A program made the position numbers and the translations under genes. From the IMG/VR virus record IMGVR_UViG_3300044611_002154: a DNA stretch of 20,000 bases. The stretch is one strand, 5' to 3'. Below the pieces are notes generated by a model, which was not told the origin of the DNA, made no database searches, and worked only from the letters and a program-made list of their open reading frames with translations. The DNA comes from an uncultured virus (IMG/VR IMGVR_UViG_3300044611_002154). Lineage: Duplodnaviria > Heunggongvirae > Uroviricota > Caudoviricetes. Position 1 is the first letter of the stretch; each line of letters opens with the position of its first letter. Below are positions 13,988 through 17,460 of this stretch, piece after piece.

Positions 13988-14197
13988 ATGACTGACCAAC
14001 AAAAACTTCAACGCCTTCTTTCCAAGATTCGGGAAACTGCAAATCGCGAGCACTGCCTTGACGAGTGTGGCGATGATTACTGTTCTGCAGACAATGGCAA
14101 TTATGATGATGCCTTTAGCGATGGAACAAACTATGGCGAGATTGCGTTTGCTCGTGAACTGCTTCAGTGTATTACCGACGAGCCTGAAGCCCAGTAG
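13988..14197 (+). CDS. Acidic hypothetical protein
   Basis: 69 aa, flanked by TAG-N9-CTA direct repeats. Confidence 0.7.
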   Translation: MTDQQKLQRLLSKIRETANREHCLDECGDDYCSADNGNYDDAFSDGTNYGEIAFARELLQCITDEPEAQ

Positions 14198-14206
14198 TCA
14201 CCTTCT

Positions 14207-14407
14207 CTAAAAAGCCCCATCAGGGGCCTTTTCTTTTGCCCAAGTATGATCTCCAGGAATTGGTTCCATTGAAGCTTCCCATGAATCGTAGTCTGGTTCA
14301 TTGCGAGGATCATAGATTTCCTCACTCGGTGGAATATAAATTTCTCCCCTACTAAGCCATCGTGCAAGACGTTCGCGTTCCTGCTCAGAAGACAATTTCC
14401 TTTTCAT
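14207..14407 (-). CDS. Hypothetical protein
   Basis: 66-aa ORF, convergent, ending in a hairpin. Confidence 0.55.
   Translation of the reverse strand: MKRKLSSEQERERLARWLSRGEIYIPPSEEIYDPRNEPDYDSWEASMEPIPGDHTWAKEKAPDGAF
14209..14238. terminator. Bidirectional terminator
   Basis: AAAAA-GCCCC-ATCA-GGGGC-CTTTTCTTTT. Confidence 0.6.
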
Positions 14408-14440
14408 GGAAAACCAACTAATCTTCTCTAGCTTATCTAG

Positions 14441-14660
14441 GCAAAAGAAAAGGGGGCCAAAGCCCCCGTCTCTTTACAGTCTCCGATACTCGAACACAAC
14501 TAGGGGAAAACTCCTCGCCTAGAAGGGCGGCGTGCCTCTCAGGAGAATGACTAGCTCCTTGGCGAAGCTATACAGCATCACCCACGCCACCGTCAAGCGT
14601 TCACCCTCACGGCCCGCCTTACGACAGGAGAAGCAATTAAGCCTCTAGAACCGACTGCTC
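14441..14660 (-). ncRNA. Candidate structured non-coding RNA (~220 nt)
   Basis: Extended -10 TGtTACAGT upstream (14665-14673); five or more stems; ends in GGGGGCTTTGGCCCCC-TTTTCTTTT; no ORF in the track. Confidence 0.55.
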
Positions 14661-14708
14661 ACAAACTGTAACACATGCTGCTGCTCACGACGGCATGCTT
14701 GACAGGCA

Positions 14709-14746
14709 TGGCACAATGGTAAGACCGTTGTCCGCGAGGGCGATGG
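14709..14746 (+). promoter_or_regulatory. Extended -10 promoter and 5' GCGA hairpin for rlpA
   Basis: TGgCACAAT at 14709-14717; hairpin CCGTTGTCC-GCGA-GGGCGATGG at 14725-14746. Confidence 0.5.
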
Positions 14747-14773
14747 GCCTCTCTAGTTCTTTTCACCATTTTG

Positions 14774-15130
14774 ATGCTTTCACGATTTCTTCTTTCTCTG
14801 TTCCTTTTGGCTCCTACCATCCCTGCCCATGCCGCGTCAAGGCAATGCGGCGAAGCCTCGCACTATGGTATGGGAGATGGCTACCACGGGCAACGCACTG
14901 CCAGTGGCGTCAGGTTTGATGCCTACGGTTCCATTGCTGCTCATCCATGGCTTCCATTTGGTACACGCCTTCTCGTGACAAACCGTGACAATGGAAGGCA
15001 GACAGTGGTGACGGTCAATGATCGCGGCCCATACTACGGCGGACGCATTCTTGACTTGTCCTACGGCAGTTTTTCAAGACTTGCTTCGCCTGGGCAAGGA
15101 ACTGCCCGCATTTGCTTCTCTCGCTTGTGA
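14774..15130 (+). CDS. rlpA: RlpA-family lytic transglycosylase (DPBB) with signal peptide
   Basis: GEASHYG...GQRTASG..FD...AAHPWLPFGT.L.VTN..NGR..VVTVNDRGPY..GRILDLS; N-terminal signal ending AHA. Confidence 0.93.
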   Translation: MLSRFLLSLFLLAPTIPAHAASRQCGEASHYGMGDGYHGQRTASGVRFDAYGSIAAHPWLPFGTRLLVTNRDNGRQTVVTVNDRGPYYGGRILDLSYGSFSRLASPGQGTARICFSRL

Positions 15131-16143: not shown

Positions 16144-16401
16144 ATGGCCACCATCCCCACTCTCCATCTCAACGGCACCTCCAAGACTGATCTAAGAGAT
16201 GGCTACGCTGCTGCTTACGATGCCATCGAAAAAGCCATTGATGCTCTGGCAAATGCCGAGCTCAATGGCCGGGATTTCTATCCGCAAGGTCCCGATGCTT
16301 ACTACCAAGCCCGCAAGGAGCGTGATCAAGCTTTTGAAAAGCTTCGCGCCGCTCACGACTATGTAGGGGAAGTGCTCGTGGGCATCTGCGACCAAATGTG
16401 A
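16144..16401 (+). CDS. Hypothetical phage protein (PTLHLNGTS...NGRDFYPQG)
   Basis: ATG 16144 follows the cassette. Confidence 0.75.
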   Translation: MATIPTLHLNGTSKTDLRDGYAAAYDAIEKAIDALANAELNGRDFYPQGPDAYYQARKERDQAFEKLRAAHDYVGEVLVGICDQM

Positions 16402-16472
16402 AGCTTTGTAACAGCCCCCGTTTAGGGGGCCTTTCTCCTGTATTGTTCTCTAGTCGTCAGGCAGCGATGCCT
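16395..16472 (+). promoter_or_regulatory. Promoter cassette 3
   Basis: Box 16395-16412 (reverse complement GTTACAAA-GC-TTCACATT); hairpin GCCCCC-GTTTA-GGGGGC; TATTGT at 16441; AGGCA-GCGA-TGCCT at 16459. Confidence 0.75.
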
Positions 16473-17377: not shown

Positions 17378-17460
17378 TTTGTAAAGCTTTGTAACAAGGG
17401 GGCTTCTGGCCCCCTTTCTGCTGTATTGTTCTTTTGTTCTGAGGCGCGAGCCTCTCCTCT
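17378..17460 (+). promoter_or_regulatory. Promoter cassette 4 with perfect HLR1 consensus
   Basis: Box 17378-17395, reverse complement GTTACAAA-GC-TTTACAAA; hairpin AAGGGGGCT-TCT-GGCCCCCTT; TATTGT at 17424; GAGGC-GCGA-GCCTC at 17441. Confidence 0.8.

Follow-up and report, generated by a model that had tools for sequence, protein, structure and literature searches.

The 20,000-nucleotide (nt) stretch of DNA analysed here, hereafter the window, comes from a 46-kb IMG/VR virus record (IMGVR_UViG_3300044611_002154) that is about 65% complete. The subject of this study is a gap of 366 nt that separates an open reading frame (ORF) of 66 amino acids (aa) on the minus strand (14407-14207) from a DPBB/RlpA-like gene on the plus strand. 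Read on the minus strand, this gap contains, in the following order, the extended -10 element TGtTACAGT (14673-14665), a G+C-rich stretch, and a hairpin of six G-C pairs followed by UUUUCUUUU. A first-pass annotation, made from the sequence, had proposed that positions 14441-14673 of this strand encode a highly structured non-coding RNA (ncRNA) transcribed divergently from rlpA. As detailed below, the gap very probably contains a stand-alone gene, the product of which is a structured RNA belonging to a new family. The coordinates of all features are listed in Table 1.

Relatives of the locus were gathered via the flanking proteins, with 80 loci obtained by rlpA and 20 by the small ORF. The intergenic region was detected by blastn in 62 of 101 loci, corresponding to 39 distinct sequences. 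After removal of one cut copy (L043), the remaining 38 sequences were aligned (alignment A1) and trimmed (alignment A2). Identity in the RNA region goes down to about 70% among the relatives, which is remarkable for non-coding DNA adjoining proteins that are themselves only 55-75% identical. Pattern scans provided additional copies. The scan of viral contigs returned 59 loci, 56 of which were confirmed by nhmmer (the exceptions being L255, L269, and L274). In the metagenome contigs, 80 loci were examined of 89 matching stretches, and 76 of the 80 matched our covariance model R1 (E <= 0.01), leaving L325, L352, L357, and L364 without a match. The core alignment A3 was composed of 43 distinct sequences, namely the 38 mentioned above plus L233, L239, L256, L280, and the copy from Synechococcus phage S-CBS4; L267, which duplicates L256, was left out. 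Alignment A4 was fitted to the covariance model and its pair counts were therefore not used. A partial match (L314, 69 bits) was set aside as a short inverted or chimeric contig. Its positions 100-420 carry the 5' half of the RNA followed by an inverted promoter region and rlpA, which most likely reflects an assembly chimera or an inversion.

The RNA was present in 45 of the 80 loci collected by rlpA. The 35 loci without it mostly contain distant rlpA relatives; two closer relatives among them (L032 and L043) have hardly any DNA available upstream of rlpA. A blastn search of the region against 50,697 phage records returned nothing, and a BLAST-based genome search missed even the S-CBS4 copy. 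A DNA search by sequence only is therefore too insensitive in this case, and nhmmer and the covariance model were needed.

The RNA gene is framed by conserved transcription signals. The extended -10 element follows the pattern TGnTAnnnT, with the TG, the TA, and the final T identical in all 38 aligned homologues, in agreement with the promoter named in the first-pass annotation; the relatives read TGCTATGCT or TGTTATGAT at this place. A TTGTCA box is located 17 nt upstream of the -10 element in one clade. In the clade of the window, a 12-nt insert displaces the corresponding box, so that a usable -35 element is lacking, and the promoter is missing from the promoter scan because that scan demands a -35 hexamer. 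Judging from promoter geometry, transcription would start at G14658, 7 nt past the -10 hexamer and exactly at the first base of helix P1, and the RNA would end within the T-tract of the terminator. The strong terminator predicted earlier, composed of a stem and a T-tract, was found in each of the 38 sequences of A2; its stem varies in sequence, and its hairpin energy has a median of -23.9 kcal/mol. The terminator hairpin was found on both strands and, owing to its A-tract, the terminator is bidirectional. No ORF of at least 40 aa occurs within the RNA; in the initial reading, the only ORF with an ATG start noted on this strand was of 19 aa.

Folding of 14441-14673 on the minus strand gave a minimum free energy of -94.5 kcal/mol (z -2.42), with one of 200 shuffled sequences being as good, versus a z of -1.31 for the plus strand. 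RNAalifold applied to A2 proposed 50 pairs, 21 of them with compensatory changes, and independently arrived at the same helices as those described below; 98.9% of the alignment cells were paired in A2 versus 42-55% with slid partners. The structure used with A3 was set by hand and consisted of 48 pairs in ten helices. Across the 43 homologues, 99.4% of 2059 cells form pairs as compared to 39.9-54.3% when the partners are slid. Compensatory double changes were observed in 26 of the 48 pairs (5-10 when slid), and the covariation score was reached by none of 500 shuffles. The structured element proposed on the minus strand is thus borne out: it folds better than shuffled sequences, and the case becomes stronger still by comparison of the 43 homologues. 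A homologue search with a covariation analysis, of the kind suggested along with the original proposal, revealed a strong compensatory pattern.

G-U pairs determine the strand. Columns 36/47 of the alignment are UG in 43 of 43 sequences and columns 17/28 are GU in 41 of 43, and eight G-U pairs occur in the window's own structure. Since these two column pairs would be A-C on the other strand, the RNA is assigned to the minus strand, as had been argued from the many G-U pairs seen at the outset.

The 185-nt core comprises eleven helices (Table 1). P1 closes a three-way junction. One arm is the four-way-junction domain P2/P2a/P2b/P2c, which includes GCCGYRAGGNTGRRC in 38 of 38 sequences; the other is P5, which carries the P3/P3a/P3b three-way junction and P4. 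P5 was spotted by eye, as six bases after P2 that pair with six bases before the invariant AUCGGA. In an anchored test, 94.6% of the P5 positions paired in register versus 43-54% in six unrelated registers, with two diagonal shifts giving 86% and 73%. Up to six pair types occur per position of this helix, and all four of its pairs counted in the A3 test show double changes. P4 is highly variable: a hairpin of at least 4 bp (median z -2.4) is present in every homologue, but it is built from unrelated stems such as UCCCU/AGGGA, CUCUC/GAGAG, and CCCUGGC/GCCAGGG.

Nearly all invariant bases are located in junctions and loops, that is, in AUCGGA, GCCGYRAGGNUGRRC, GGCUUAAUUGC, GCCAAGG, and GAGG. The copies from L045 (83 bits) and L056-58 (70 bits), which were not among the seed sequences, preserve AUCGGA, the GNRA loop, and GAGG, along with P1, P2, P5, and P3, the paired sequences of which are entirely different. 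A mutual-information scan of A4 for pseudoknots detected only a clade-level signal and no convincing extra pairing.

Table 1. Features of the RNA locus and of the genes next to it (window coordinates).
Feature	Position	Strand	Remarks
Whole RNA, about 216 nt	14443..14658	-	predicted ends, from promoter geometry and terminator
Extended -10 promoter	14665..14673	-	TG (14673-14672) and TACAGT (14670-14665); TG, TA, and last T invariant
P1, 5' strand GCAGUC	14653..14658	-	pairs with 14476-14481; 6 pairs, 100% paired, 4 with double changes
5' domain, four-way junction (P2, P2a, P2b, P2c)	14599..14651	-	helices 99.2-100% paired; 5 pairs with double changes
P2	14651-14648 / 14602-14599	-	5' domain
P2a, loop UUAAUU	14646-14641 / 14634-14629	-	5' domain
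P2b, tetraloop GUAA	14628-14623 / 14618-14613	-	5' domain
P2c, CC-GUGA-GG	14612-14605	-	GNRA loop in all sequences
P5, 5' strand GCUUGA	14593..14598	-	pairs with 14488-14493 (UCGAGU)
3' domain, three-way junction (P3, P3a, P3b)	14526..14591	-	helices 96.1-100% paired
P3, 9 bp	14591-14583 / 14534-14526	-	double changes in 7 of 9 pairs
P3a	14582-14561	-	3' domain
P3b	14559-14555 / 14545-14541	-	3' domain; 100% paired
Conserved junction GAGAGG	14540-14535	-	3' domain
P4, variable hairpin CUAGG...CCUAG	14500..14522	-	hairpin in 43 of 43 homologues
P5, 3' strand (14493-14488), and invariant junction AUCGGA (14487-14482)	14482..14493	-	ATCGGA in 43 of 43
P1, 3' strand GACUGU	14476..14481	-	partner of P1 5' strand
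Intrinsic terminator AAAGAGAC-GGGGGC-UUUG-GCCCCC-UUUUCUUUU	14442..14474	-	stem 14467-14452; 6 G-C pairs
Small ORF, 66 aa	14207..14407	-	usual downstream neighbour, outside the RNA; same strand as the RNA in most loci
rlpA-like gene with its own extended -10 and conserved 5' leader	14709..15130	+	divergent neighbour; ATG at 14774; PF03330, E 9.5e-20

Six of the eleven pairings and signals listed in the first-pass annotation recur in this model and five are not conserved. Besides the promoter and the terminator, the former include CCTGTC-GTAA-GGCGGG, which is P2b; GGCGTG/CACGCC, which forms part of P3; CTAGG/CCTAG, which is P4; and GCAGTC/GACTGT, an end-to-end pairing regarded as possible at that time and now established as P1. 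The multibranch domain assigned to GGCGTG/CACGCC retains its closing stem, P3, but not the inner stems, the real ones being P3a and P3b. Namely, GGTGAT/GTCATT is paired in only 62.7%; CTC/GAG clashes with the fully paired P3b; and in TAGCTTC/GGAGCTA five of the seven pairs together reach 78.6%, and the remaining two, counted as separate helices, 93.0% and 92.5%. AGCAGT/ATTGCT is paired in 92.6%, yet one of its pairs is broken in 16 of 43 sequences and it competes with P1 and P2a, and CCGT/ACGG is paired in 65.7%. The earlier list was also incomplete, since P2, P2a, P2c (CC-GNRA-GG), and P5 were overlooked.

The nearest cultured relative of the window virus is Synechococcus phage S-CBS4, whose host is Synechococcus sp. 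CB0101 and whose helicase is 60.5% identical over 97% of its length. S-CBS4 carries the RNA (nhmmer E 3.7e-30, 127 bits) in an unannotated gap of 416 nt that extends from gp093 (rare lipoprotein A) to gp092, and its GenBank record shows no feature beneath the match. The description of the element as an unannotated phage ncRNA divergent from rlpA is supported by the viral record, the conserved promoter and terminator, the covariation, the lack of an Rfam match, and the missing annotation in S-CBS4. The window virus is a phage of freshwater or estuarine Synechococcus-type cyanobacteria. As far as our searches extend, the RNA is confined to S-CBS4-like cyanosiphoviruses of Synechococcus/Cyanobium-type cyanobacteria. 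Picocyanobacteria are major primary producers in lakes and estuaries. The shape of the RNA is strictly kept in more than 100 related viruses, which implies that it must do something important. The existence of a cultured carrier distinguishes this RNA from most motifs known from metagenomes only and opens it to experiment.

No convincing match to R1 was found in 310 genomes (151 + 8 + 151) of the cyanobacterial phylum, a set that may not cover the family of the host; the best hits scored 20.6 and 23.8 bits over about 85 nt. The pattern scan of bacterial genome contigs had G+C-rich chance matches among the matches listed and is uninformative with regard to bacteria: none of L102-L221 was recovered by nhmmer at E <= 1e-3, and all 80 loci with flanks scored at most 15.4 bits with R1.

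The RNA matched no catalogued family. The comparison with Rfam proposed in the first-pass annotation, cmscan of the whole window against the 4227 models of Rfam 15, yielded no matches at gathering score. At E values up to 10, the copies from the window, S-CBS4, and L013 produced only scattered or terminator-like hits with scores well under the gathering threshold, none of the families recurring over the core. ARAGORN predicted no tRNA or tmRNA genes in the window. The literature, as represented by search listings and abstracts, contained no description of this RNA. In the parts accessible to us, the IMG/VR catalogue of candidate structured RNAs (PMC10690425) gives candidates of 29-151 nt. Two words of 11-12 nt and two contig numbers did not occur in its readable supplements; one of its candidates may overlap the RNA in part. 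The novelty claimed here is accordingly that of the RNA family and its fold.

Three relatives (L370, L376, and L308) have an opposite-strand gene between the RNA and the small ORF. It encodes an endonuclease VII/HNH-like protein of about 200 aa, which belongs to phrog_1035 (E 1.4e-19 and 1.1e-18) and has no Pfam hit. The cassette occupies positions 594-1330 in L370 and 1096-1823 in L308, at a site corresponding to position 14487 of the window, and the start of the inserted DNA coincides with the invariant UAUCGGA within the RNA gene. The insert provides another P1 3' strand and another terminator, so that the RNA remains complete (164.3 and 160.7 bits). The original AUCGGA-P1'-terminator segment is left as a remnant directly before the small ORF; this segment is thus duplicated on either side of the cassette, in two different sequence variants. 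The fact that the RNA was rebuilt despite the cassette points to selection for keeping it whole and argues that it matters to the phage.

The small ORF encodes a protein family with the consensus MKLS.EQERERL..W...DPRNE...EP(I/L)PGD..W.K.K and no Pfam, PHROG, or PADLOC hit for the 66-aa member in the window. The family is separable from the RNA. In L056-58, the homologue of the small protein is encoded on the opposite strand, convergent with the RNA, and the strand of the RNA holds no other gene there. L045 lacks a homologue downstream of the RNA, and the next genes are convergent. Also, the family occurs in T4-like cyanomyoviruses next to nrdB; R1 detected nothing at these loci, nor beside rlpA in S-PM2 or S-CREM1. 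Because the ORF is inverted (L056-58), absent (L045), or split off by the endonuclease gene (L370, L376, L308), these loci support the view that the RNA is a stand-alone gene and not a leader. It shows the features that define a generic structured ncRNA gene, that is, its own promoter and terminator, a covarying fold, and no coding potential.

Several further observations concern the small ORF and its surroundings. The conserved parts of the protein are an N-terminal helix (KLS.EQERERL..W) and a C-terminal EPIPGD..W.KEKAP, without a known domain. The family recurs inside a 118-aa protein (phrog_1336; L282:2489-2845) encoded directly after nrdB, for example in S-RIM2. Three loci (L016, L020, L349) contain two extra perfect palindromes, of the CCACTGTTGCACAGTGG and GAGCTTGTGCAACAAGCTC types, between the RNA terminator and the small ORF, which could be operator sites or additional hairpins. 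A bidirectional terminator-like hairpin (GCCCCATCAGGGGC, 14214-14227, T-runs on both strands) lies within the last codons of the small ORF and forms the end of the leftward unit as well as of the rightward operon, which stops at 14197.

Seven sequencing runs share words with the region, four of which were compared, all stored as contigs; uncovered stretches in these runs were not counted as evidence. Two metatranscriptomes from different studies (X3 and X6) have one contig each over 14481/14483-14643, which corresponds to the RNA core only, with no loose ends. X1, probably a DNA run, extends past both ends of the core, and X2 covers other parts of the region. The core-only contigs are a weak hint of a stable RNA.

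Taken together, we consider it likely that the gap contains an independent, uncatalogued structured ncRNA gene of S-CBS4-like siphoviruses that acts in trans through its fold. The gene is flanked by signals for a host-type RNA polymerase, namely the extended -10 promoter and the intrinsic terminator. The terminator would end the RNA, and read-through into the small ORF would be incidental or only dose-setting. By means of its three-dimensional fold, the RNA may associate in trans with a protein, as its RNA component or as its decoy, or may be a ligand-binding or catalytic RNA; it would act neither by long antisense pairing nor as a leader of the small ORF. We place the function in the fold rather than in antisense pairing because of the size of the RNA, its eleven helices, two multi-helix junctions, and invariant GNRA loop, and the clustering of conserved bases in junctions. 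Large multi-junction RNAs with conserved junction bases are rare, and those that have been solved are usually ribozymes, riboswitches, or cores of ribonucleoproteins.

A number of points weigh against this interpretation. The proposed action through the fold derives from structural complexity and the location of conserved bases, with no partner, ligand, or cleavage site identified. The sequences compared are related, so that the cell counts given above overstate the number of independent events. The expression data are contigs, which cannot show transcript ends, abundance, or strand. A Pfam scan of the 66 ORFs in the 46-kb, about 65%-complete contig revealed no RNA-guided or RNA-binding protein family. 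Finally, the small ORF lies on the same strand as the RNA in 41 of 45 RNA-positive viral loci and follows it in 67 of 76 RNA-positive metagenome loci, at a distance of 30-143 nt in 65 of them and 715 nt in two. Among the nine metagenome loci without an ORF hit, six are truncated at no more than about 90 nt (L304, L318, L329, L339, L356, L375), L349 and L308 show the start of the ORF at the contig end, and L314 is rearranged. No convincing separate promoter was found for the small ORF, the only candidate being a TAnnn(T/A) box after the T-tract. Expression by read-through, and hence some coupling in cis, is possible in genomes with an adjacent ORF.

The same Pfam scan found no reverse transcriptase, TnpB, IscB, IS110, or Cas family; thus, an adjacent enzyme of the kind that accompanies guide or scaffold RNAs (omega RNA, bridge RNA, tracrRNA, retron msr-msd) was not detected among these ORFs.

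A more far-reaching version of the fold-based interpretation, which we consider rather doubtful, is that a new functional class of phage RNAs, working by tertiary structure alone, is represented here for the first time. The RNA would then be either a new ribozyme or a trans-acting aptamer, a 'sponge' for a host metabolite or signalling nucleotide by which cyanophages would reprogram or disarm the host. The AUCGGA junction and the GNRA-capped P2c would belong to its active or binding core.

The order of promoter, structured domain, terminator, and small ORF, which is kept in most genomes (65 of 76 metagenome and 41 of 45 viral loci), is also that expected of a cis-regulatory leader, i.e. a riboswitch or protein-binding attenuator whose domain senses a ligand or protein and sets the choice between stopping and reading on into the small ORF. 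The lack of a canonical promoter for the ORF fits such a leader, and cyanophages do carry glutamine riboswitches ahead of small ORFs. We nevertheless regard this explanation as unlikely. A leader of this kind should always be located 5' of a co-directional gene; this is true here in most genomes but fails in L056-58, where the ORF homologue is inverted, in L045, where it is missing, and in L370, L376, and L308, where an opposite-strand endonuclease gene intervenes, with the RNA intact or rebuilt and, in the latter three, the ORF kept. Cyanomyoviruses, moreover, have the small protein without the RNA. A riboswitch leader should also possess a mutually exclusive antiterminator. In a crude test of complementarity between the 5' arm of the terminator and the 60 nt upstream, the median z was -0.58 relative to shuffles and only one of 38 sequences fell below -2, so that the complementarity does not exceed chance.

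A stand-alone unit with its own promoter and terminator is typical of bacterial small RNAs, and an invariant unpaired heptamer is present in this one. A trans-acting base-pairing RNA with a conserved single strand, e.g. AUCGGAG, as a seed against host or phage mRNA appears improbable, however, because the core, with its 185 nt, eleven covarying helices, and conserved junctions, far exceeds the needs of a seed. In addition, almost the entire length is paired, and the heptamer sits in a three-way junction instead of an open 5' end or an apical loop.

It is more improbable still that the RNA and the small ORF form a pair with the layout of a type III toxin-antitoxin system, in which the terminator would set the ratio of RNA to protein and the RNA would bind or neutralise the protein. 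The gene order is that of ToxIN-type loci, promoter-RNA-terminator-protein, and the two components co-occur in nearly all genomes. The RNA contains no tandem repeats, however (Tandem Repeats Finder, 14150-14850, minimum score 30, 0 rows). The protein is of only 50-66 aa and without PADLOC, Pfam, or PHROG hits, and none of the proteins near the RNA had a PADLOC hit. The RNA persists without the ORF in L045, as does the ORF family without the RNA in cyanomyoviruses.

An element acting at the DNA level, such as an origin, a packaging or recombination site, or a single-strand initiation signal, might be expected next to replication and recombination genes (Sak, nuclease, helicase), which adjoin the locus, and as the target of a mobile endonuclease cassette, but is hardly credible given that a conserved promoter and terminator frame the element exactly, that its pairing is strand-specific through G-U pairs, that the compensatory pattern spans eleven nested helices, and that, as weak evidence, contigs from RNA libraries cover it.

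On the other side of the RNA gene, rlpA was divergent from it in 68 of 69 loci with an rlpA hit. The extended -10 of rlpA (TG 14709-14710, CACAAT 14712-14717) is located about 40 bp from the RNA promoter on the opposite strand. The conserved plus-strand block 14707-14770 places TGgCACAAT back to back with the RNA promoter, followed by a leader that contains CTAG; neither ACAAT nor CTAG varies among 27 sequences. RNAalifold gave only a weak structure for this block (-7.2 kcal/mol), which was read as the promoter and leader of rlpA and not as a portion of the RNA. A hairpin with a T-run (14736-14753) just 5' of the rlpA start codon could be an attenuator of this gene.

The direct repeat of the HLR1/RpaB type has 15 matches in the window (at most 3 mismatches) versus 3.7 expected, and none of 200 shuffles reached 15. 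The matches include 17378-17395 (minus strand), which is the only perfect one, 16395-16412 (minus), 14975-14992 (plus), and 12 more; no HLR1/RpaB-like box was found at the RNA promoter. Outside the window, the contig of this phage (L389:5137-6624) encodes a ribonucleotide reductase-like protein of 495 aa that covers the Ribonuc_red_lgC barrel only in part. Next to structural genes, the same phage contig encodes sugar-modifying enzymes, namely a glycosyltransferase and a xylose-isomerase-like TIM barrel.

Several known systems resemble the RNA locus in part. Glutamine riboswitches precede small ORFs in marine cyanobacteria and cyanophages. As in riboswitch leaders with a terminator, a structured domain at the transcription start is followed here by a terminator and usually a small ORF; the differences are the missing antiterminator signal, the absence of an Rfam riboswitch match, and an ORF that is inverted, absent, or separated in three lineages. 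ToxIN-type loci have the gene order promoter-RNA-terminator-protein, and these elements are likewise found on one strand in our case, but the RNA is not a tandem repeat array and the protein is very small, with no relationship to known defence proteins. The replacement of the RNA 3' end by the endonuclease cassette is similar to events at tRNA and tmRNA genes, where inserting islands replace the 3' end of their target: the incoming element supplies a substitute 3' end and the displaced end stays as a remnant on the far side. The RNA described here differs in that ARAGORN identified no tRNA or tmRNA and the cassette encodes an endonuclease VII/HNH-like protein, not an integrase.

The phi29 pRNA is a phage-encoded, independently transcribed structured RNA within a protein machine. 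The RNA of S-CBS4-like phages is also a stand-alone phage RNA of 120-220 nt whose function would reside in the fold, but it has no Rfam pRNA match, its phages are not phi29-like, having contigs of about 70-77 kb and a Phage_portal_3 portal, and no link to packaging was noted. Orphan large ncRNAs, including GOLLD, ROOL, HEARO, raiA, and OLE, were discovered by comparative genomics and are in part phage-borne, occurring in phages or mobile DNA. Their models did not match the RNA at gathering score or at E values up to 10, and its core of 185 nt is smaller. In common with these RNAs, however, it represents a self-contained gene with multi-helix junctions, conservation concentrated in junctions and loops, and strong covariation.

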